From the NCBI GenBank assembly GCA_034521595.1, contig JAXHMG010000002.1, forward strand, positions 205,340 through 269,339: a stretch of DNA of 64,000 nucleotides, written 5' to 3'. The translations under genes were made by a program, and so were the position numbers. The notes below the pieces were generated by a model that worked only from the letters and a program-made list of their open reading frames with translations, was not told the origin of the DNA and searched no databases. This DNA comes from Gemmatimonadota bacterium. Its GTDB lineage: Bacteria > Gemmatimonadota > Gemmatimonadetes > Longimicrobiales > Gaopeijiaceae. Shown one piece after another: positions 1-10,533 of this stretch. Position 1 is the first letter of the stretch, and every line of letters starts with the position of its first letter.

Positions 1-2
1 CC

Positions 3-1457
3 CTCAACCGGACCCAGTACGACAAGCCTCCGCTCATCCCGCGCCAGGCTCCCCTCTGGGACCAGCTCGTCAACTACCTGCAGTACTTCGATTGGCAGTG
101 GTCGCGCTCGCTGGACGGAGCGCAATCCGTTTTCGCGGGGGCCCGCATCCCGTTCACCATGCTCTTCACCGGGCTCGGCGTGTGGGGCGCGTACGAGCAC
201 CTGCGCCGCGATCGAGTCAGCTTTTATTACATGGGCGTGCTCTTCGTGACGCTTTCGTTCGGGCTCGTCTACTACCTCAACTTCAAGCACGGCTACTCGC
301 TGGAAGCGCCCAGGCCCGACCGTAGCCTCCACGAGGTTCGCGAGCGGGACTACTTCTTCATCGCGAGCTTCTCGGTCTGGGGACTCTGGGCCGGCATGGG
401 CATCGTGACGCTCTGGCGGGAGGCGGCGTCCGAGTTCAAGACCACGATGGCCAAGGCGAGCCCCGTGCTCGCCCTCGCGCTCATTCCGCTGATGCTCAAC
501 TGGGGTTGGGCGGACCGCAGCTACGACTACTCCGCGCGAGACTGGGCCCACAACCTCCTCATGAGCGTGGAACCGTACGGCGTCATCTTCACGAACGGGG
601 ACAACGACACCTTCCCGCTCTGGTACCTCCAAGAGGTGGAAGGCGTCCGGAGGGACGTCACGGTCATCGTCACGTCCTACCTGAACACGGAGTGGTACAC
701 ACTCCAACTCAAGGCGCTCACGCGTCCGTGCCCGGAGGGTGTCGACCCGTCGTCGGACTGGACCGTCATCCAATGCCAGCGCCCCTACACGGCGGAGAAC
801 ACCAACGCGGCATACGTGGCCGAGCCCGAAGCGTCGGGCGAGAAGACGCCGCTTCTGCTCGACGAGCCGGTCTCTCCGCCGAGCGGCCCCGTGCTCTCCC
901 TCAGCGACGAGCAGATCGGGCGGGTGGCCGCCTCGTACACGCCCATCGAGGAGACGCAGCATCTGCAGCTCGGCGAGGTCGTGGCCAGGATCGAAGCGGG
1001 CTCCTACCTCGCGCCCTGGCAGCAATTCGCCCTCAACCTCGTCAACGAGTCGATCGGGGAACGCCCCATCTATTTCGCTTCCAGCGGCAACGCCGCCGGC
1101 TCCCTGGGGCTTCAACCATACCTCGTACGGCACGGGCTGGCGTTCAAGCTGCACAACGGGGCACTCGAAGAAGCCGGCCAAGATGTCGTGGAGCTGGAGC
1201 AGTCGCCGTACACGTCAGTGACGGGCAACTGGGTGGACGTCCCGCGGACCCGGAAGTTGTTCGAGGACGTGTTCGTACACCGCTCGGGGATCCCCGACGA
1301 ATGGTCTCACTGGCCCGATCTGGCCACGATCGGCATTCCGAACTACTACTCGTGGGGATACCTGGCGTTGACCCAGGCAGCCGTGCAGGCCGAAGATTCG
1401 GACCTCGTCGACCACTATCGAGCGCGCGCCGAGGCCTGGGCCGAGCTGGGCAGCTGA
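3..1457 (+). CDS. DUF2723/TMEM260-like polytopic membrane protein (putative protein O-glycosyltransferase), 5'-truncated by the window edge
   Basis: Frame is open from base 3 (LNRTQYDKPP...YFDWQW). Contains VRERDYFF and FTNGDNDTFPLWY motifs and several TM segments. Confidence 0.8.
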   Translation, partial: LNRTQYDKPPLIPRQAPLWDQLVNYLQYFDWQWSRSLDGAQSVFAGARIPFTMLFTGLGVWGAYEHLRRDRVSFYYMGVLFVTLSFGLVYYLNFKHGYSLEAPRPDRSLHEVRERDYFFIASFSVWGLWAGMGIVTLWREAASEFKTTMAKASPVLALALIPLMLNWGWADRSYDYSARDWAHNLLMSVEPYGVIFTNGDNDTFPLWYLQEVEGVRRDVTVIVTSYLNTEWYTLQLKALTRPCPEGVDPSSDWTVIQCQRPYTAENTNAAYVAEPEASGEKTPLLLDEPVSPPSGPVLSLSDEQIGRVAASYTPIEETQHLQLGEVVARIEAGSYLAPWQQFALNLVNESIGERPIYFASSGNAAGSLGLQPYLVRHGLAFKLHNGALEEAGQDVVELEQSPYTSVTGNWVDVPRTRKLFEDVFVHRSGIPDEWSHWPDLATIGIPNYYSWGYLALTQAAVQAEDSDLVDHYRARAEAWAELGS

Positions 1458-1508
1458 GCCGGCCGGCCCACTCCCCGTGACGCGCTCATTCCTCGGACCC
1501 CGACACTC

Positions 1509-1889
1509 ATGCGCACGATCTCGACCCCCGACGCACCCGAGCCCAAGGGGCACTACAGCCAGGCCATCGTGCATGGTGGCCTCGTTTACGTGGCAGGCCA
1601 GCTCGCGACCGACCCGAGTGACCCCGACGCGGACCCCGGTGATGCCGGTGAGCAGACCCGGCTCATCTTCCGGAACATCGAAGCGATCCTGGGCGCCGCG
1701 GGCTCCAGCCTGGATCGGCTGCTCCAGGTCACCATCTACGTCTCGGACATCGGGGCCTGGGCGACGGTGAACGACGCCTTCGCCGACGCGCTGGGCGACC
1801 ACCGCCCCACTCGAGCCATCGTGCCGGTCGCGACCCTCCCACCGGGACGGGAGGTGGAAGTCGTCGCCATCGCCGCCGTGGACGAATAG
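1509..1889 (+). CDS. RidA/YjgF/UK114 family enamine-imine deaminase
   Basis: 126 aa with GHYSQA, VYVAGQ and RPTRA...VEV motifs. Confidence 0.9.
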   Translation: MRTISTPDAPEPKGHYSQAIVHGGLVYVAGQLATDPSDPDADPGDAGEQTRLIFRNIEAILGAAGSSLDRLLQVTIYVSDIGAWATVNDAFADALGDHRPTRAIVPVATLPPGREVEVVAIAAVDE

Positions 1890-1935
1890 AGGAAACGGAG
1901 GCGTCGGCTCGGCCGCTCCGTGCTCGGCGTGGTGC

Positions 1936-2262
1936 TCAGCCTTTGCGCGGCAAGGTCATGTTGTCCAGGAAGCGCCGGTCCTTGCTCGAGAGCGCCTGGA
2001 CGCCTTCCTCGTCGATACGGTGGAGGAGGCGCTCGACCTCCTCCCGGTTCAGCGGGTGCAACCGCTCGACCTCGATAGCTCCCCACCGCTCGCGATCTTC
2101 CTGCTCCCGTACTGCCGGCGCCGCGTAGTGGGAGTTCGGCGCCTCCACTCGCCTCGCCTCCGCAATCCGCCGACGGCGCCGGGCCACGTACGCCCGGCGC
2201 AGCGCATATCCGCCCATCACCACGGCCATGGCCATGGCCAGGCCCATCATCCACACATCCAT
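1936..2262 (-). CDS. Small membrane-anchored hypothetical protein with a C-terminal DUF6576-like helical motif
   Basis: N-terminal TM helix followed by EVERLLHRIDEEGVQALSSKDRRFL. Start is ATG 2262 or TTG 2274. Confidence 0.65.
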   Translation of the reverse strand: MDVWMMGLAMAMAVVMGGYALRRAYVARRRRRIAEARRVEAPNSHYAAPAVREQEDRERWGAIEVERLHPLNREEVERLLHRIDEEGVQALSSKDRRFLDNMTLPRKG

Positions 2263-2396
2263 AAGCGCTTGCAACCGTGTACCTCGTCCTGCCCCGCTGC
2301 ATTCGCGGGGACGCCGCCCTCAACATGATGCGACGGGGACGGCGGACGAAAGGTTGCGTGACACGACCCGCGGGCGGGCCGGGAACGCAAGGACCC

Positions 2397-4868
2397 TCAG
2401 ACGGTCGGACGGAGCTCGATCCACCCCGGGCCGGACGGGACCGGACGCACCACGGGTCCTCCGGGAACGCCGTCGGCTCTGGCTTCGAGGAGGTAATTGA
2501 ACAGCTCGGGTCGGGCGTCCACGGCAGCGCCCCGGGTGATCAGGATCATCCTCGGGATCTCCTGCGTCAGCGCTTTCAGGAGCGACAACGTCCGGCTCCG
2601 GGTTTCGGAGTCCAAGCGGTCGAACGGCTCCTCGACGGGGAAGGAGGCCAGGACCCGGCCCGATCCCGCCGTCAGCGAAGCCGCCGCGAGACGCAACGCG
2701 AGTCGTGCAGCCGCGAGATCCTCCTCGGAAAGCGGATGGAGCACGCCCATGGTCCCCTGCAGGTGAGCTCGCCCACCGGATTCGGTCACGGCGAGGATCC
2801 GGCCTCCGGAGATGCGGCAGAGGAAGCGCGACGCTCGATCCAGGAGCTGATCCAGCGCACGTTGGAGTCGCGCGGCCCGCACCCGGCCGAGCGCCTCCAC
2901 CACGGGCTTGTCGGGCCCTGCCAGCGCTCCCGCCAACTCCCCGTGCGAAGCCCCACCACCGCCCCGCTCCGCCAGCCGGTTGCGAAGGATCTCCACACGC
3001 TCCGATCCGGCCTCGATGGCCGCGTGGAGCCGCACGGCGCGGCCTTCGAGGTCCCGTAGGTGCTCGGGCTTCAGCTCGAGCTGCGCCCACCGACTCCGCC
3101 ACCAGCTGCCGTCCTGCACCACCGCCTCCCATTCCTCCTTGAGCTCGGCGAGCACCGCTTCGTAGTGCGCGGCCAGCACACGGCCGCACGTCGGGCAAGG
3201 AGCGTCCGGACCGGCGGACTCCATCCTGCGAAGCCTCGCCCGCAGCTCCCGTGCCCGGTCGCGGTACGCCTGCAACGTGGTCTCGGCGTCCTGGCGCTCA
3301 CGAAGCCAATCCATCGTGGCCGCTTCGAGGTCGCCGTCCACTTCCGCGGCGTCCGCCCGCACCTGCTTGAGCTCCCGCTCGGCGGCATCCAGCTCTTCGG
3401 CGAGCGCCCGGCTCTCGGCCGAGCCGCTGGCCATCGCGTCCCCCCGATCGTCCGACGCCGGCCCCGGACGGTGGTCCGGATCGACCCCGGCCCGGTCCAG
3501 GGCAGCATCCAGGACGGTCAAACCCCTGCTGGCCGCGACCGCCTCGACGGCCAGCCTCAGCGCCGAATCGAGGGTTTCGGCCTCGATGCCCTGCCAGAGC
3601 CTGCCGAGCGGACTCGCGTCGCCGATCCGGCCACGGACGAACTCGGCCACGGCGCGACGGGTGCGTGAGCCCCCGCCGAACACCGCGGTGAGCCCTTCCG
3701 GAATGGACGTGCTGATCCGCCCGAGCCCCGGGACCGTTCCCTCGAGCACTTCCATGCGCCCCACCGGATGGGAGCCGAGGTCTTCCTCTTCGGGGAGCCA
3801 CGCCGCAAGCCGATCGAGGGCCTCCGCCGAGCTCGAGCCTTCTCGCATCAGCTCCGCCTCCACGGCGTCGCGGAGCCGTCGCACGGCCTCGGTCGGCAAC
3901 CAGGCTTCCGCGGGCACGCGCGGCTCACGGCCGACTTCCACGGCGAGGTGGAGCGCCCGGTCCCGTAGCTCTTCGATCGGGGTCCCCTGGAGCGCGAGCA
4001 GGTCCGAGGGAACCGCGCCTTCGAGCCGTACCCGCACGATCTTGCCCTCGATGCCGCCCGGGACCTCGTCGGCGACCTCCCGCACCCGCCGCCGGACCCG
4101 GTCGGGGTCACCCGAGCCCACCTTGATGGGGGCGAGGGCCACGACCGGCCTCCCGCGAACCCGATGAAACGTCGCTTCCCCCCGTTCGACATCGACGGTC
4201 ACGAACCCCTTTTCGTCCGCCGCTTCGTCCCACGGATCGAGGGCGACGCGCTCGAGCGAGCCGGCGTACCGCACTCCTCTCGTCACCTCCCGGGCTCGGT
4301 GCTCCCCCCCGAGCGCGACGTAGTCCCATTCGTCCGGTTCCACGTGCACGCCGCGCACCGGCCCTCCCGAAGCGGTGTGTGCATGCAGCACGAGGAGATT
4401 CCAACGGCGAGTCGGGTCGGGCTCCGGCACCACCGGTGGTTCCCGGACCGCCGCGCGATGGGGGACGAGACACGCATGCAGGTCGAGCCGGTCGATCAGG
4501 ATGGACCGGGTGAGCCCGGTCGCGGCCTCCACGTTCGAGAACGTGTCCAACACGGCGAGGGCGCCCGGATCCCCCGAGCGGCGGGGGGTGTCTCTGGGCC
4601 CCGCCACCATCAGGACGGGAGCTCCGGACAGCGAGGAACGCAGCAGCTCGAGCCCCCGGGCGAGCGCGACCACGGCTCCGGCCGGCGGGTCCGGCCGGTC
4701 GAACACGTCCCCGGCCACGACCACCACGTCAGGCCCGATTCGTACGAGCTCCCCCACGGCACGCTCGAACGCGGCCGATACGTCCCGCTCCCGGATGTTC
4801 ATCTCGCTCTCGACGCGGCCGTACGCCCGAAATCCGAGATGGAGATCCGAGAGATGGGCGACGATCAC
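2397..4868 (-). CDS. SbcD/Mre11-like metallophosphoesterase fused to a shortened, degenerate SbcC/Rad50-like coiled-coil/zinc-hook region
   Basis: HLSDLHLG, AGDVFD and YAGSLER in the N-terminal half. Coiled coil around CPTCG (3183-3197). LSEED and VEEPFDRLD sit at the signature and Walker B positions. Confidence 0.85.
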   Translation of the reverse strand: MIVAHLSDLHLGFRAYGRVESEMNIRERDVSAAFERAVGELVRIGPDVVVVAGDVFDRPDPPAGAVVALARGLELLRSSLSGAPVLMVAGPRDTPRRSGDPGALAVLDTFSNVEAATGLTRSILIDRLDLHACLVPHRAAVREPPVVPEPDPTRRWNLLVLHAHTASGGPVRGVHVEPDEWDYVALGGEHRAREVTRGVRYAGSLERVALDPWDEAADEKGFVTVDVERGEATFHRVRGRPVVALAPIKVGSGDPDRVRRRVREVADEVPGGIEGKIVRVRLEGAVPSDLLALQGTPIEELRDRALHLAVEVGREPRVPAEAWLPTEAVRRLRDAVEAELMREGSSSAEALDRLAAWLPEEEDLGSHPVGRMEVLEGTVPGLGRISTSIPEGLTAVFGGGSRTRRAVAEFVRGRIGDASPLGRLWQGIEAETLDSALRLAVEAVAASRGLTVLDAALDRAGVDPDHRPGPASDDRGDAMASGSAESRALAEELDAAERELKQVRADAAEVDGDLEAATMDWLRERQDAETTLQAYRDRARELRARLRRMESAGPDAPCPTCGRVLAAHYEAVLAELKEEWEAVVQDGSWWRSRWAQLELKPEHLRDLEGRAVRLHAAIEAGSERVEILRNRLAERGGGGASHGELAGALAGPDKPVVEALGRVRAARLQRALDQLLDRASRFLCRISGGRILAVTESGGRAHLQGTMGVLHPLSEEDLAAARLALRLAAASLTAGSGRVLASFPVEEPFDRLDSETRSRTLSLLKALTQEIPRMILITRGAAVDARPELFNYLLEARADGVPGGPVVRPVPSGPGWIELRPTV

Positions 4869-6253
4869 GAGGGCTGGCGGCTGCCGCCGAGAGGACGCCC
4901 GGCCGCCTCCGTCGGAGGCGGAGCACGTCGTGCCACGAGCACCTCGTCGCGAGTCTCGGATCGATCCCGCCGCTCGGTCTCCCAGTCGGGCGGCCCGAAC
5001 CCCCTTGGATGGTGCGCGGCCTTCGGGCCCCAGACCATGACGCCCTCGGGTGCCAGGAGCTCACCGAGACGCCGCTGCGCCGCCTTGGACACCGCCTCCA
5101 GACCGCCGACCGCGTCGAAGGCCCGGCCATCGACCAGGACGAGATCGAACGGGCCCTCGAGCTCCGAGAGCCGGTCGGCGAGGTTGCCGGTCAGAACCCG
5201 CCGCCTGGACCGGTCGAAACCCTCACCCTCCTCGGCCTGTTCTTCGACCTGCTCCCACTCCGGCACCGTGCCGAAGTGGCTGAGGCCGAGCTCCACGACG
5301 CAGTGCGCCCGCTCCAGAACGGTCACCTCGGCCCGCTCGTGCCGTGCCAGAACTTCGGAGGGAGCGTGCGACGCGCCACCCCCGACGTGGAGGACGCGGG
5401 GCGCCTCAGGGGCATCGGAGGATGCGAGGATCTCCCTCGCCGTGGCCACGTCCCAGGCGATCTCGCTTCCGGACGCCCACGTCCCATCCCCGACGCTCCG
5501 GCCATCCCCGCCACGCTCCGCCCGCTGAACCGTCCGGACGACGTCACCTTCGAGCAACAGCCATTCGATCACGTCCCCACCCGCGTGCACCCGCTCCTCC
5601 ACTCGAACCGGTGGCGGGCCCACACACCCCTTCGCCACCTCGCGCCGGCGAGGCGTACCGGATCGGACCACTCCGTACGTCATGCCACCGAGCGACACGA
5701 GGACGAGACAGAGGACGAGCAACGACGCCGGGGTCGGCGCCTGGGGGAGCAGAAAACCCGTGAGCGCGAAACCCGCGGCCGCCCCGAAGGCCCCCACCGA
5801 GGCATGCCGGGGTGGGACGGCGCCGGCATTGCGATACGCCTCGAACACCAGTCCGCTCAGGAGCGCTCCGCACGCGTAGAGGGGGAGCCCGACCAAAACG
5901 GCCAGCCCCAGCCCCTGCCCGACCCGACCACTCCCGATCGTGGGCACCATCGTCCAAACCGTCCCGAACACCGTCGCCGCCAGGAACGCGACCAAGGTGA
6001 AGATCCACCTTCGGCGTATGCCGTCGACCGGCTCCGGCTTGGGGTACGGAGTCCACAGTCCGACCGCGAGCGCCGTCGCTTCGACGGTCAGAACGGTGGT
6101 CAGGGAGCGAGTGAAGCCCGGACCGCTGTAGAGAAGCAGACCCATGCCCACCTCGGCGGCCACGGCGCTCGCGAATCCGACCACGAACACGGGCACCCAC
6201 CCGAGGGGATGCCGGGCCTCGCCGGGCGGTCGACCCGCCGGACCTGCGCTCAC
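4865..6253 (-). CDS. Membrane domain fused to a spermidine-synthase-like SAM-dependent transferase domain
   Basis: About 6 N-terminal TM helices, then VLHVGGGAS, VLER and FDLVLVD Rossmann motifs. 4-nt overlaps with both neighbours. Confidence 0.7.
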   Translation of the reverse strand: MSAGPAGRPPGEARHPLGWVPVFVVGFASAVAAEVGMGLLLYSGPGFTRSLTTVLTVEATALAVGLWTPYPKPEPVDGIRRRWIFTLVAFLAATVFGTVWTMVPTIGSGRVGQGLGLAVLVGLPLYACGALLSGLVFEAYRNAGAVPPRHASVGAFGAAAGFALTGFLLPQAPTPASLLVLCLVLVSLGGMTYGVVRSGTPRRREVAKGCVGPPPVRVEERVHAGGDVIEWLLLEGDVVRTVQRAERGGDGRSVGDGTWASGSEIAWDVATAREILASSDAPEAPRVLHVGGGASHAPSEVLARHERAEVTVLERAHCVVELGLSHFGTVPEWEQVEEQAEEGEGFDRSRRRVLTGNLADRLSELEGPFDLVLVDGRAFDAVGGLEAVSKAAQRRLGELLAPEGVMVWGPKAAHHPRGFGPPDWETERRDRSETRDEVLVARRAPPPTEAAGRPLGGSRQPS

Positions 6254-6759
6254 GAGGCGACCGACCCGAAGGCCCCTTCGTGGTAGACCATGGACGGCTG
6301 CTCACTCACGCCCGTGGCACGCACTTCGCCCACGATGATCGTGTGATCACCCCCCGGATGCGCTTCGTGGAGCGTGCACTGAAGCCACGCGGAAGCCCCC
6401 CTTATGACCGGATGCCCGTCCGGCCCCACGAACCACTCCACCTCGTCGAAGCGACCCTCCGAGGGATCGACCGCGAAGCGACTCGCGACCGAAGCCTGCG
6501 CTTCGGAGAGGACGCTGATACCGAACCCTTCGGCCTCGAGGATCCGATCATGGGTATCCGACGACCGATCGATGCAAACCAGGACGAGGGGCGGCTCGAG
6601 CGAGACCGACGTGAAGGCGCTCACGGTCAATCCCCACGGATAGCCGGAAGCATCGGTAACGGCCACGACGGTCACCCCGGTGGGAAAGCGTCGCATGGCT
6701 TGCCGGAAGTCGCCCGTGCTCACTGGTGAAACCATTGGCTCGTCATCCTCGGGAGGCAC
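6250..6759 (-). CDS. Flavin reductase family protein (HpaC/RutF-like)
   Basis: FRQAMRRFPTGVTVV, SFTSVSLEPP-like and GGDHTIIVGEV motifs. The true start may be ATG 6735. Confidence 0.9.
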   Translation of the reverse strand: MPPEDDEPMVSPVSTGDFRQAMRRFPTGVTVVAVTDASGYPWGLTVSAFTSVSLEPPLVLVCIDRSSDTHDRILEAEGFGISVLSEAQASVASRFAVDPSEGRFDEVEWFVGPDGHPVIRGASAWLQCTLHEAHPGGDHTIIVGEVRATGVSEQPSMVYHEGAFGSVAS

Positions 6760-6861
6760 GATGGAGTCGCCGGGGCGTGCTTGCTCGTCGGTGCCTCACC
6801 GCTAGGTTTCGAAGCCCGAGCCGAGGCGGTGCCGGACAGCGAAACTGGACTGAAGGCCCTG

Positions 6862-7851
6862 ATGCGACGCCATTTCCTAACGATTGCGGTGATCTTAACC
6901 GTGGCCAGCGGCTGCGACAACGTGGCGTGGGGTGGAATCGACGTCACGATCGAGTCGCCCTCGACGCTCGCGGACACCGGCCGGGACTCCGCGAGCGTCG
7001 AGGAGCCCGAAGCGCCCCAACCCCGCCTGGGACCCGCGCTCTTGGCTGGTAGACGCCAAGGTTCCGAGGTGCGGCTGTCTCCGGTGGGCATGCTCCTCGA
7101 CGACTCCCTCGCCCCGCTCCCCGGCCCGGCCGACAGCGCCGCGCACGCCGAGGCGCTAGCCATGCTCGACAGCGGCTCGGAGTGGGTGCTCTTCGGCGCC
7201 GGCGCGAGAATCGGGACGCTGCGCGTCACCGAAACGGCGCAGGACCCGGAGCTGTGCGGCCTCGACCGCGTGCTCGTGGGCCCGCCGGAGCTGTTGCCGG
7301 ATGCGGCGAACCAGGAACGCTTCCTCGCCCTCTCCGCCGACTACGCCGAGGCCTGGTCGGCAGGTGAATACGCGCCGCTCGCGCACAACTATAACCAACG
7401 GGTGGCTTCACTCGAGCTGGGTGGGGCCGCGCTTCCCCGTGTCGGAGCGCGCTGGCCGGCCGAGGGCATGCTCGGCTCGAGGCAGGACATCCAGGCGTTC
7501 CGGCCCGCCGAGGACGCCACACCTTCGATCGCCGCGACGTTCGTCGTCGGAGACGCGCTCGACACTTCGGCGCCCTCCACCGACGCGTACGCGCTCTTTC
7601 TGATGGCCCGCGAGAGCCCCGAAGGATTCGAGGAGACGTACCTCTGGTACCGGCCGGCGGCCGAGGGCAAAGCGGTGCCCCGCCTGGTCGAGCACCTCGA
7701 CTGGGATCGAGACGGACGCGCCGAAGCGCTGTTGGAGGTGCTGGGAGAGGGCCGCCGAGGGTACGTCGGCTTGGAACGGGACGACGACGGAGCCTGGAGC
7801 GAGGCCTACCGGAGTCCCTGCGCCCATACGTCGGGGACCACGGAGCGTTGA
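6862..7851 (+). CDS. Hypothetical lipoprotein
   Basis: MRRHFLTIAVILTVASG-C lipobox and a DWDRDG loop. Stop overlaps the start of the downstream binding protein. Confidence 0.7.
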   Translation: MRRHFLTIAVILTVASGCDNVAWGGIDVTIESPSTLADTGRDSASVEEPEAPQPRLGPALLAGRRQGSEVRLSPVGMLLDDSLAPLPGPADSAAHAEALAMLDSGSEWVLFGAGARIGTLRVTETAQDPELCGLDRVLVGPPELLPDAANQERFLALSADYAEAWSAGEYAPLAHNYNQRVASLELGGAALPRVGARWPAEGMLGSRQDIQAFRPAEDATPSIAATFVVGDALDTSAPSTDAYALFLMARESPEGFEETYLWYRPAAEGKAVPRLVEHLDWDRDGRAEALLEVLGEGRRGYVGLERDDDGAWSEAYRSPCAHTSGTTER

Positions 7852-8768
7852 CGCGCCCTTCATCGGCGCCACGCCGCGTCGCGCGGCCGCGGCTCCGCTT
7901 TTGGGCGTGCCTCTGCGCTTGCGTTGCGGGGCTGGCGGCGGCGTGCGATGCGCCGGAGCAGGACGCGAGCCAGTCGTCGATGTCCGGCGCGATCGAAGTC
8001 CGGGATGCGAGCGGCCGCACCGTGCGGCTCGCTGACCCAGCCACCCGCGTCATCTCCCTCGTGCCTTCCGCCACGCTCACCCTCCGGGCGATTGGCGCCG
8101 CGGACCATCTGGTGGGACGCACCGACTTCGACGAGGGAGTGGGCCTCGACTCCCTGCCTTCGGTCGGTGCCGGCCTGGAGCCGAGCCTCGAGGCCATCGT
8201 CTCGTTGCGCCCGGATCTGGTCGTACGCTTCGCCGGCGACCAGGACCGCCGCACCCCGTCACGGCTCGACGACCTGGGCATTCCGCACCTCGCCGTCCGG
8301 CCCGACAGGATCGAGGACGTCCTCGCGAGCATCGACATGCTCGGACGGGTGACGGGGCGCTCGGCGGCCGCCGATTCGCTCGTCGACCAAATCCGCGCCG
8401 ATCTGGATCGGGTCGGGGAGCTGGTCGCGTCCCGACCGCCCCTCGAGGTCGCCTACGTGCTCGGCGGCACACCCCCGTGGGTCGCGGGTCCCGGCACGTA
8501 CATCCACGAGCTCATCGAGCTCGCCGGAGGGGAGAACGTCTTCGCCGACCTCGACAACCTCTACCAGGCGGTGAGTCCGGAGGAGATCCGGTCCCGTGCC
8601 ATCGATGTCGTGCTCGTGTCCGGCACCGACGTCTTCGACCGGACATTGGCACCCGACGCGCGCATCGAGACGGTCGACGAGAGCCTCGAGATTCCCGGTC
8701 CGAGCCTCGCGAGCTCGGCACGCCGCATGGCCGAGCTGCTACACGGTCCGCTTCCCTCCGGGCCATGA
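7848..8768 (+). CDS. Cobalamin/Fe-chelate ABC transporter substrate-binding lipoprotein (BtuF-like)
   Basis: RVISLVPSAT, EAIVSLRPDLV, AGGENVF and VSPEEI motifs plus a lipobox. Confidence 0.85.
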   Translation: MTRPSSAPRRVARPRLRFWACLCACVAGLAAACDAPEQDASQSSMSGAIEVRDASGRTVRLADPATRVISLVPSATLTLRAIGAADHLVGRTDFDEGVGLDSLPSVGAGLEPSLEAIVSLRPDLVVRFAGDQDRRTPSRLDDLGIPHLAVRPDRIEDVLASIDMLGRVTGRSAAADSLVDQIRADLDRVGELVASRPPLEVAYVLGGTPPWVAGPGTYIHELIELAGGENVFADLDNLYQAVSPEEIRSRAIDVVLVSGTDVFDRTLAPDARIETVDESLEIPGPSLASSARRMAELLHGPLPSGP

Positions 8769-9757
8769 GCCGCTGGGCCTTGGGCGTCGGCCTGACGGTC
8801 GCCACCCTCGCCTCCGTCCTTCTCGGCGTGCGCCTCGGCTCGGTTCCGCTCTCGACGGCCGAGGTGCTCGGCGCGCTCGGCGGAGGCGGAGATCCGGTGG
8901 CCCGGGATATCGTGGTCCGGCTGCGGCTTCCCCGGGTCCTGCTCGGGTTGCTCGTGGGGGGTGGGCTCGCGATCTCGGGGGCCACCTTCCAGGCGCTGCT
9001 TCGAAACCCGCTCGCCGAGCCCTACATCCTCGGTATCTCGGGTGGGGCATCCGTCGGCGCGGTGCTCGTGCTCGCGTTCGGTTGGATCGCGGCCGGATCC
9101 TGGGCCCTCCCCCTCGCGGCATTCATCGGCGCGCTCGTCGCCATCGGGCTCGTCTTCCGGGTCGCCACGGCGACGGGGCGAGCGATGGACGTACGCGTGC
9201 TCCTCCTCGCCGGCGTCGTCGTGGCGGCATTCTTCTCGGCATGCATCGCCTTCATTCTCTCCATCTCGCCCGCGCGCACGGTGCAGAGCGCCGTCCTCTG
9301 GATCATGGGCAGCTTGGCCGGCGCCACCTGGCGTGGGGTCCTCCTGACCGCCGTTTACACCACGCCCGCCGTGCTCCTGTTGATCGGGTTGGCCCGACCG
9401 CTCAATCTCCTCTCCATCGGCGAGGAAACCGCCCACCACCTCGGAGCCGACGTGGAGCGCGTCAAGCGCGCGTCCCTCGCGGTGGCGGCGCTCATCACCG
9501 CCTCCGGGGTCGCGGTCGCCGGCGTCATCGGGTTCGTCGGGCTGATCGTTCCACACGCGGTCCGACTCCTCGTCGGCTCCGACCACCGGGCTCTGCTTCC
9601 GCTCTCGTTCTTGGCGGGTGCCGCATTCCTCACCCTCGCGGACCTCGCGGCCAGGCTGACGCTCGCTCCCACCGAGATCCCCATCGGGGTGATCACGGCC
9701 TTCATCGGCGTCCCGTTCTTCCTCGTGCTCCTCCGGCGTAGCGTGACGGGTCGATGA
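8765..9757 (+). CDS. FecCD/BtuC family ABC permease
   Basis: RLPRV, RNPLAEPYILGISGGA, GVIGFVGLIVPH and EIPIG motifs. ATGA overlap with the upstream stop. Confidence 0.92.
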   Translation: MSRWALGVGLTVATLASVLLGVRLGSVPLSTAEVLGALGGGGDPVARDIVVRLRLPRVLLGLLVGGGLAISGATFQALLRNPLAEPYILGISGGASVGAVLVLAFGWIAAGSWALPLAAFIGALVAIGLVFRVATATGRAMDVRVLLLAGVVVAAFFSACIAFILSISPARTVQSAVLWIMGSLAGATWRGVLLTAVYTTPAVLLLIGLARPLNLLSIGEETAHHLGADVERVKRASLAVAALITASGVAVAGVIGFVGLIVPHAVRLLVGSDHRALLPLSFLAGAAFLTLADLAARLTLAPTEIPIGVITAFIGVPFFLVLLRRSVTGR

Positions 9758-10533
9758 AGATCGCGGCGGAGGGCATCGTCGTGCGGTACCCCGGGAGCAG
9801 CGCTCCGGCCTTGGACGACGTCTCCATGAACGTGCCGTCGGGCTCGCTCTACGCGGTGCTGGGACCGAACGGCTCCGGAAAGTCGTCGCTCATGCGCGCG
9901 TTGCTCGGCATACGGCCGCTGGAGCGAGGGCGTGCGCTCCTGGAGGACCGTCGCGTCGAAGATTGGGACCGGCGCGCGCTCGCCCGTGCGGTAGGCGCGG
10001 TGACCCAGAGCGAAGCGATCTCGTTCCCGCTCACCACACGCGAGATGGTGGCCATGGGCCGCTACCCCTACCTCGGCCCCCTCGAAAGGGAGCGCGACAC
10101 CGACCGGAACGCCATCGAGCGCGCTCTGTCCTCATGCGATCTCCTGGAGCTCGCCCGACGCGACGTGACCACGCTCTCGGGCGGAGAATTCCAGCGAGCG
10201 CGCCTCGCCCGCGCACTGGCGCAGGAGCCACGGGCCCTGGTTCTCGACGAGCCGACCGCCAGCCTCGACGTGGGTCACGAGATGACGATCCTCGAGCTCC
10301 TCAGATCCTCGGCGGACGCCGGAATCACCGTGCTCCTGATCACCCACGGCCTCGATATGGCGTCCCGCTTCGCCGATCGCCTGCTCCTCCTGTCTCGCGG
10401 GATCGTGGCCGCGGAAGGGACGCCCCAGGAGGTCGTGCGCGAGGAAATCCTGCGCGAAGTGTACGGGTGGCCGCTCGCGGTGCACGAAGATCCCACCACG
10501 GGGGCTCCGAGGGTCACACCTCTTTCTTCCTGA
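9754..10533 (+). CDS. Cobalamin/Fe-chelate ABC transporter ATPase
   Basis: GPNGSGKS, LSGGE and LDEPT motifs. Confidence 0.92.
   Translation: MKIAAEGIVVRYPGSSAPALDDVSMNVPSGSLYAVLGPNGSGKSSLMRALLGIRPLERGRALLEDRRVEDWDRRALARAVGAVTQSEAISFPLTTREMVAMGRYPYLGPLERERDTDRNAIERALSSCDLLELARRDVTTLSGGEFQRARLARALAQEPRALVLDEPTASLDVGHEMTILELLRSSADAGITVLLITHGLDMASRFADRLLLLSRGIVAAEGTPQEVVREEILREVYGWPLAVHEDPTTGAPRVTPLSS

Follow-up and report, generated by a model that had tools for sequence, protein, structure and literature searches.

The fused gene and the fold of its two halves

The stretch of DNA analysed here, 64,000 nucleotides of a Gemmatimonadota genome (assembly GCA_034521595.1, contig JAXHMG010000002.1, positions 205,340 to 269,339; referred to as the window), carries on its minus strand, at 2397..4868, an uninterrupted open reading frame (ORF) encoding an 823-aa protein, P0001, which joins an SbcD/Mre11-like N-terminal part to a reduced SbcC/Rad50-like C-terminal part. 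The gene starts with GTG, ends with a stop codon at 2397-2399 and shares four nucleotides (GTGA) at its start with the stop of the upstream gene P0002, and the plus strand across the same interval is interrupted by many stops. An earlier sequence-only reading had described the ORF as a single-chain SbcD-SbcC (Mre11-Rad50) fusion; it placed the ORF and all of the motifs correctly, and the strand had not been given. The comparisons made in the present study indicate that the gene is very probably the direct positional orthologue of sbcD-sbcC, remodelled in the bacterial family to which the window belongs.

The search against Pfam returned Metallophos alone for P0001 (residues 3-93, E 2.5e-5), with no match to AAA_27 or AAA_23, and neither of the NCBIfam models TIGR00619 (sbcd, 40.2 bits, cut-off 77.65) and TIGR00618 (sbcc, 14 bits, cut-off 478.5) was reached. 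As was found by a search against solved structures, residues 3-230 resemble Mre11 of M. jannaschii (3auz_A, E 2.2e-11) and residues 616-782 resemble the C-lobe of P. furiosus Rad50 (3qku_A, E 1.5e-4). A profile of 18 stand-alone homologues of the C half also matched the P. furiosus C-lobe (3qkr_B, E 1e-6). The PADLOC search gave a weak match only, to LmuB (E 1.1e-5), which covers residues 451-632 in the coiled-coil region and not the ATPase head.

When P0001 is aligned to M. jannaschii Mre11 and to a canonical SbcD of Gemmatimonadota, GPRD pairs with GNHE/GNHD and GGEH pairs with GHxH, and the motifs SDLH (residues 7-10) and GDVFD (residues 53-57) precede them. In the alignments with the P. 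furiosus Rad50 profile and, using hhalign, with canonical Gemmatimonadota SbcC, the residues S-E-E-D stand opposite S-G-G-E, VEEPFDRLD stands opposite LILDEP..LD, and an arginine stands opposite the H-loop histidine. The Walker A consensus GxxxxGK[ST] is absent anywhere in P0001, the position of the P-loop being occupied by GGGSRTRRA. The motif equivalences proposed from the sequence were reproduced by these alignments, apart from that of Walker A, which is given by the fold, and it was likewise found that the catalytic centres of both halves are altered and the zinc hook is kept.

An AlphaFold model built from an alignment of 113 sequences reached a pLDDT of 92.8 and a pTM of 0.89; an initial model from 25 close homologues, with a mean pLDDT of 59.4, was set aside. 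Residues 1-315 of the model superpose on Mre11 4tug_D (Z 28.1, rmsd 3.1, 280 aligned residues; Foldseek E 3.4e-16), and residues 1-361 superpose on Mre11 3av0_A (Z 26.3, rmsd 7.5), a match that takes in both Rad50-binding helices. Residues 370-811 match the Rad50 heads 3qku_A (Z 16.0, rmsd 3.9, 242 aligned residues) and 3qf7_A (Z 15.6), and SMC heads match as well. In the region of the P-loop, the model has a strand (392-398) followed by a helix (401-412), with the alignment to the Rad50 head beginning at residue 370. The hook CPTC (558-561) lies between helix 484-555 and helices 566-638, which are the two arms of roughly 70 aa anticipated in the sequence-only reading. P0001 is confidently predicted to retain the Mre11 fold along with the helices that bind Rad50, a Rad50-type head of two lobes and a coiled coil of 72 residues with its hook. 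Both halves have profile and structural matches, which bears out the assignment of the ORF as an Mre11-Rad50 fusion and refutes the supposition that the C half might give no SbcC/SMC match. The coordinates of the gene and its parts are collected in Table 1.

A Logan contig from run X1, a metagenome of a salt pan that is possibly the window's own sample, was produced with another assembler and spans window positions 2000-4724 with four differences and no gaps. Since this contig crosses the junction of the two halves without gaps, and since full-length fused orthologues occur in many other assemblies, the fusion is not an assembly collapse. At window positions 4725 and 4761, the X1 contigs branch into two variants (C>G and A>G) of approximately half depth, which suggests co-existing strains in the sample.

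Table 1. Position of the fusion gene and of the features of its product in the window
Feature	Residues	Window position	Strand	Basis
Whole gene: fused SbcD/Mre11-like and mini SbcC/Rad50-like protein, 823 aa		2397..4868	-	ORF, full-length homologues
Mre11/SbcD phosphoesterase and capping domain	1-315	3924..4868	-	Matches to 3auz_A, 4tug_D and canonical Gemmatimonadota SbcD
Motif III GPRD, replacing GNH(D/E)	90-93	4590..4601	-	Alignments
Motif V GGEH, replacing GHxH; first His lost, second kept	187-190	4299..4310	-	Alignments
Helix-loop-helix (325-342, 348-357) resembling the Rad50-binding domain of Mre11, and linker	316-369	3762..3923	-	Model, 3av0_A
Reduced Rad50-type N-lobe (strands 374-398, helices 401-459) and disordered connector	370-483	3420..3761	-	Model, 3qku_A
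Pseudo-Walker A FGGGSRTRRA, no GK[ST]	397-406	3651..3680	-	Sequence
Ascending coiled-coil helix, 72 residues	484-555	3204..3419	-	Model; homology to canonical SbcC hook region
Zinc hook; CPTCG (558-562) at 3183-3197	556-565	3174..3203	-	Sequence, cysteine conservation
Descending coiled-coil helices (566-584, 588-598, 602-638, 641-646)	566-652	2913..3173	-	Model, hhalign
Coiled-coil base and Rad50-type C-lobe	653-823	2400..2912	-	3qku_A, 3qkr_B profile, hhalign
LSEED at the signature-motif position (SGGE in Rad50/SbcC)	713-717	2718..2732	-	Profile alignments
PVEEPFDRLD at the Walker B/D-loop position	744-753	2610..2639	-	Profile alignments
ITRG at the H-loop position, His replaced by Arg	777-780	2529..2540	-	Profile alignments

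Relationship to canonical sbcD-sbcC

A canonical pair from another family of the phylum (locus L168) consists of a 397-aa SbcD with GNHD and GHYH, after which comes an 800-aa SbcC; the latter contains GPNGSGKS, CPTC as its hook (residue 406), TDGRY, SGGEE, LILDE..LD and ITH. P0001 is 32% identical to this SbcD over 334 aa (E 1e-39) and 32% identical to this SbcC over 188 aa around the hook (E 1e-20). Its N half is nearer to canonical SbcD (32%, E 9e-41) than to another SbcD-like protein encoded by its own genome (24%, E 8e-9). The comparison of the stand-alone C halves with seven canonical SbcC sequences by hhalign gave a probability of 100 and an E-value of 8e-47, with about 130 residues of the descending coil deleted.

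The canonical sbcD-sbcC genes of sister Gemmatimonadota (L168, L174 and L176) have the same position, gene order, Mre11 fold and head/coil/CxxC architecture as the gene of the window, and canonical SbcC and P0001 share the sequence flanking the hook, W.R.RQ.AET ... CPTCGR. Unlike the canonical pair, P0001 has no GK[ST], has SEED in place of SGGE, has lost the Walker B aspartate and has arginine instead of the H-loop histidine, and in its nuclease part GNHD is changed to GPRD and GHxH to GGEH. Its SbcC part comprises about 450 aa versus 800 aa in the canonical protein, with coil arms of some 72 residues each, whereas the canonical hook cysteine is found at residue 406 of 800; besides, the two genes are fused in the clade of the window.

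In a sister family of the same order (L176), the gene order is flavin reductase, P0002-like gene, SbcD and SbcC, the last two being canonical, and in further sister-family loci (L175 and L177) canonical SbcDC is followed by a convergent gene for a 432-aa protein. The positional orthology of the window gene is based on this gene order, shared with the canonical sbcDC of the sister families.

The distribution of the two forms was studied in one Gemmatimonadota order, with the families coded f1 (the window's own), f2 and f3. The sample included 61 genomes, namely 20 from each family and the window's genome, G000 (3.49 Mb, 93% complete); two of the genomes, G097 and G167, are flagged as unpublished. 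Strong matches to the N-terminal 200 aa of canonical SbcC (E 3e-57 to 9e-75) were found in 16/20 f2 and 13/20 f3 genomes. No strong match to this query was found in any of the 20 f1 genomes or in G000, the best f1 matches (E 3.6e-10) being SMC-like frames. The C-terminal 367 aa of P0001, searched at E <= 1e-8, matched 102 of 121 f1 genomes, including 77 of the 88 genomes of high quality and 70 of the 81 genera, in both long and short frames. The remodelled form was not seen outside f1: among five f2 and f3 genomes without a strong canonical match, four gave no match to the hook region, and the fifth gave one at the start of a contig. A phylum-wide figure of 103/151 genomes, whose sample includes another genome flagged as unpublished (G057), was discarded as a count of the family, because the hook-region query also matches canonical SbcC, as verified for L168-L170. 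It is unlikely that the protein is a decoy for, or regulates, a canonical SbcCD, as was suggested earlier, given that the gene is the positional orthologue of that pair and that no canonical hook-type SbcC was found in G000 and 20 f1 genomes.

The remodelled family also includes stand-alone N halves (approximately 340-410 aa) and stand-alone C halves (approximately 440-500 aa). In all 16 loci examined that have a stand-alone C half, a gene for the N half lies directly upstream on the same strand among neighbours like those in the window, and in one of the split pairs (L172) the two genes overlap by 4 nt. The boundary of the split genes falls in the linker within residues 316-369 of P0001. In a quick IQ-TREE phylogeny of the Mre11 part (56 rows), a single clade (SH-aLRT 99, long stem of 0.55) unites 44 of the 45 non-canonical rows; one row is placed as sister to this remodelled clade, and one row labelled as split is placed within canonical SbcD. 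The fused rows are intermingled with the split ones, the label "split" changing at least five times on well-supported branches, with the limitation that some of the rows counted as split may be genes truncated at contig ends; the fused subclade containing the window protein has a support of 100. At one and the same locus the gene is found either split or fused, and the two forms are orthologues.

Fusions of this kind are known already as an architecture. Mimivirus R555 and the SbcDC fusions of plasmids and phages have an N-terminal Mre11-like and a C-terminal Rad50-like part, an order in accord with the complex's geometry (Yoshida, Claverie and Ogata 2011, PMC3175470). In that paper, R555 is reported as having kept Walker A, Walker B, the D-loop and, but for single substitutions, the nuclease motifs; two of the fusions miss one segment of the P-loop; and His173, His206 and His208, together with the DxH, GDxxD and GNHD motifs, are named as catalytic. 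The published fusions are described there as sporadic, retaining the Walker motifs for the most part, located on plasmids, in viruses or by transposases, and coexisting with a normal unfused pair (PMC3175470). P0001 shares their single-chain order, as far as the comparison by description allows, and the likeness concerns the architecture only. Unlike the fusions as they are described there, the gene of the window is chromosomal and vertically inherited, replaces the canonical pair and is without the ATPase motifs. The ATPase-motif-free orthologue that replaces canonical sbcDC in a family is the new variant here, and the term "undescribed system" used in the sequence-only reading was overstated: no new partner was found, the split and fused forms interchange, and Mre11-Rad50 fusions had been published. 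In the literature outside subscription journals, no ATPase-motif-free SbcCD orthologue was found to be described.

With a word-indexed search, 415 homologues were obtained at E <= 1e-3. Those listed, 120 in number, have lengths of 798-848 aa and identities of 62-100%, and, where named, they are Gemmatimonadota proteins annotated as "metallophosphoesterase" or "SbcCD nuclease subunit". Repair capacity deduced from these names is probably wrong for this clade, and the annotation is to be corrected in this respect. A 4.2-kb contig labelled as Planctomycetota (L028) carries a full-length copy, 63% identical, with a P0002-like neighbour, and is most likely a mis-binned Gemmatimonadota contig.

The residues D8, H10, D54, G90-P91-R92-D93, H162, G187, G188, H190, C558 and C561 are invariant in 25 close homologues. 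An exhaustive search of representatives clustered at 50% identity gave 1750 matches at E <= 1e-3, 170 of them at E <= 1e-30. The best 150 comprise 25 canonical SbcD sequences, with N-H at motif III, and 125 members of the remodelled family, and all the family counts that follow refer to the latter rows. At motif III, asparagine is absent from position 91 (0/69), which is occupied by glutamate in 18/69 rows; position 92 is arginine in 59/69, and D93 is present in 67/69. At motif V, position 188 is glycine in 41/67, and H190 is kept in 59/67. The motif IV histidine (H162 in the window) is kept in only 27/68. Other residues of the metal site persist, namely D8 (53/61), H10 (58/61) and D54 (64/67). 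In the Rad50-like half, position 404 of Walker A is never lysine (0/36) and is arginine in 24/36, position 779 of the H-loop is arginine in 21/71, and position 746 of Walker B is mostly glycine or alanine. The hook cysteines are almost universal (C558 in 96/97, C561 in 96/96).

The least saturated pair of homologues (L013 and L014, dS 0.39) gave a dN/dS of 0.09 overall by the Nei-Gojobori method. By region, the ratio was 0.05 (Mre11 part), 0.075 (hook), 0.064 (C-lobe), 0.19 (N-lobe) and 0.16 (linker), and pairs including the window protein gave 0.16-0.19 with dS near 1. All parts of the protein are thus under purifying selection, which is most intense in the Mre11 part, at the hook and in the C-lobe. 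Since the substitutions are fixed family-wide and the gene is under purifying selection, it is not decaying, and the word "decayed", applied to its motifs in the sequence-only reading, is not appropriate.

Possible roles of the remodelled protein

Very probably, the operon was remodelled in the f1 clade. SbcC was shortened from about 800 aa to about 450 aa and no longer has Walker A, Walker B, the glycines of the signature or the histidine of the H-loop, and SbcD lost two ligands of one metal site, the motif III asparagine and the first motif V histidine, with a replacement of the catalytic histidine by arginine. In the subclade of the window, the two remodelled genes would then have fused. 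The retention of the Mre11 fold, the Rad50-binding helices, the two-lobed head, a short antiparallel coiled coil and a near-invariant CxxC hook points to a structural derivative of Mre11-Rad50. Such a protein may form a homodimer, the equivalent of M2R2, through the Mre11-type dimer contact and a zinc ion shared at the hook. It may bind DNA, probably DNA ends, without a nucleotide cycle, and would then be an end-binding, end-tethering or end-protecting scaffold instead of an ATP-gated nuclease, its ATPase and nuclease activities presumably having been lost. The chances that this statement is right as a whole, that is, that the remodelled sbcDC orthologue acts as a nucleotide-independent, zinc-hook-dimerised scaffold binding or tethering DNA ends, are judged to be about even. 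A repurposed, ATP-independent role, as proposed from the sequence, is the most reasonable reading since the gene is under selection.

Inactivated domains of the calcineurin-like phosphoesterase type are known as scaffolds, for example in the B subunits of eukaryotic replicative DNA polymerases, which have an Mre11-related fold and have lost metal ligands but persist as a conserved structural element. The archaeal protein DP1, an active relative of these subunits, is among the fold matches of the P0001 model (5ihe_A, Z 12.9). The polymerase subunits differ from P0001 in belonging to another protein family and context and in lacking both a Rad50 partner and a hook. In G000, at a completeness of 93%, Ku was not detected, and involvement in Ku-dependent end joining is accordingly without support; RecN is present in this genome.

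Several observations weigh against such a scaffold. The profile alignment to canonical SbcC made by hhalign did not cover the N-lobe, leaving about 200 N-terminal residues without a counterpart, and so the equivalence and loss of Walker A rest on the predicted fold and the absence of GK[ST]. In the clade of the window, Walker B is changed only from D to E (FPVEE) and the LD of the D-loop is kept, so that the nucleotide pocket has been erased to a lesser degree than in the family at large. Within f1 the gene does not occur throughout, as 19 of the 121 genomes have no match to the C-terminal part of P0001. Finally, residual or altered hydrolysis is possible, because one full metal site is retained and because LpxH is active with an arginine at the same position of motif III (PMC3087551).

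The last point leads to the principal alternative, possible though not probable, in which the protein is a remodelled ATP-independent nuclease or phosphodiesterase that works with one metal site (D8, H10, D54 and H190) and with Arg92 stabilising a phosphate, the Rad50-like half being a dimerising DNA clamp. The family-wide conservation of D8, H10, D54, D93 and H190, the prevalence of R92 and the fact that the Mre11 part has the lowest dN/dS of all regions agree with this, and the glutamate found at position 91 in a part of the family is a potential metal ligand. On the other hand, none of the 69 rows has the asparagine at this position, where the window protein has a proline, unable to bind metal, and the first motif V histidine is most often glycine and the motif IV histidine is kept in a minority of the rows. 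As these three residues are lost, the second site of the binuclear centre would be gone in most members. This assignment of ligands to metals presumes that, in the structure of P. furiosus Mre11, one metal is coordinated by the residues kept here and the second by those that are lost. LpxH, a hydrolase of UDP-2,3-diacylglucosamine that belongs to the calcineurin-like phosphoesterases, has GNRD as motif III, with the histidine replaced by arginine, and is active (PMC3087551). LpxH is also among the fold matches of the P0001 model (5b49_A, Z 13.1). However, it keeps the asparagine and the full GHxH, is an active binuclear enzyme and has neither a capping domain nor a Rad50 part.

The scaffold at DNA ends can also be imagined in greater detail, and this picture is rather doubtful. 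The fused chain might form a small ring or rod that the zinc hook keeps permanently closed, with arms of about 10 nm, whose pseudo-ATPase heads would be held together or on DNA without nucleotide, and one metal site together with Arg92 might read a DNA end without cutting it; tethering or capping would then be separable from the ATPase cycle. In the clade of the window, the arginine-rich former P-loop (RTRR) could pair with the partner head's former signature, which is acidic (SEED). Among 33 representatives, 13 have a net basic P-loop and 23 have an acidic signature; the correlation (Spearman rho 0.23, p 0.19, not corrected for phylogeny) lends weak support to such a charge complementarity.

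In the field of Mre11-Rad50, it is debated what the coiled coil and the zinc hook contribute apart from the ATP-driven gating of the nuclease. Here, the orthologue itself has neither the ATP site nor one half of the metal centre of the nuclease, and its fold, helices, coil and hook are under strong purifying selection family-wide, making it a natural case of the machine without ATP. If DNA ends are indeed bound or bridged without nucleotide, the 823-aa chain would be a compact single-chain system apt for structural and single-molecule work on the functions that depend on the hook.

Besides P0001, the genome G000 encodes two pairs in which an SbcD-like nuclease is accompanied by an ABC ATPase; Walker A is kept in the two ATPases, and a CxxC hook is lacking from both. 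The first pair (G000:C1:102404-106277, on a 117-kb contig) consists of a 387-aa SbcD-like protein and a 901-aa ABC ATPase. This ATPase was found only in G000 among the 61 genomes of the order, and the pair is therefore probably an accessory system, possibly mobile or related to defence. The second pair (G000:C2:174131-178188), located about 31 kb upstream of the window start, consists of proteins of 455 aa and 897 aa, the latter of the AAA_27 (YhaN) type, and resembles YhaO/YhaN (SbcEF), known from Bacillus subtilis as a second bacterial pair similar to Mre11/Rad50 (PMC2811018). P0001 differs from SbcEF by the lack of AAA_27 and AAA_23 matches and by the presence of the hook. The search for the YhaN-like ATPase was positive for 11 of 20 f1 genomes and for G000, versus none of 40 genomes of f2 and f3, the sister families that keep canonical SbcCD. 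The pair may be a functional replacement in f1, kin genomes not being independent of one another.

These pairs would be candidate partners if P0001 were an adaptor or regulator of another Mre11/Rad50-like pair, for instance of the YhaO/YhaN type, either recruiting it to DNA ends or restraining it. Their presence in G000 and the restriction of the YhaN-like ATPase to f1 within the sample speak for this role. Nevertheless, the role is improbable and fits poorly with the patchy distribution of the YhaO/YhaN pair, which occurs in only about half of the sampled f1 genomes and is unlinked to the fusion gene, and with the presence of the other pair in a single genome, whereas the remodelled protein occurs in 102 of 121.

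Co-option for a role unrelated to DNA ends, such as that of a structural or membrane-associated coiled-coil protein acting with the product of the upstream gene P0002, is very improbable. The GTGA overlap implies translational coupling of the two genes, and P0002-like genes are located upstream in 63 of 80 related loci. However, a P0002-like gene adjoins canonical sbcDC in L176, so this linkage is older than the remodelling; some loci, L044 and L079 for example, have a shortened P0002 or none at all, and the conserved parts of P0001 are those of a machine that handles DNA.

A decaying pseudogene or an assembly artefact, which the loss of canonical motifs in both halves could have suggested, is practically untenable in view of the 415 homologues, the dN/dS of 0.09, the fixed motif states, the X1 contig across the junction and the confident AlphaFold model. 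The earlier proviso of a dN/dS near 1 with no fusion in relatives does not apply, the fusion being present in many relatives.

Neighbouring genes and intergenic DNA

Across the 80 related loci, the genes most regularly found near the remodelled gene are those of a flavin reductase (66 loci), the P0002-like protein (63), the 432-aa protein (58) and RidA (46). None of the neighbours in these loci was found to be a partner gene specific to the remodelled form; no such partner emerges because the same neighbours flank canonical sbcDC. The product of P0002 (window 4865-6253, minus strand, 462 aa) is similar to membrane proteins, and its C-terminal part bears a weak resemblance to spermidine synthases (NCBIfam E 0.02-0.1).

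The fusion gene and the RidA gene are convergent and are separated by about 500 nt of intergenic DNA (window 1890-2396). No terminator-like or promoter-like sites were found in window 1800-2500, and the Rfam search gave no match in window 1-10000. The sole ORF of the intergenic stretch (1736-2326, minus strand, 196 aa) is of unusual composition and matches no family. Three further genes without a Pfam match, encoding proteins of 432 aa (159-1457, plus strand), 169 aa (6720-7229, minus strand) and 370 aa (7226-8338, minus strand), are syntenic in 58, 39 and 56 of the 80 loci, respectively.

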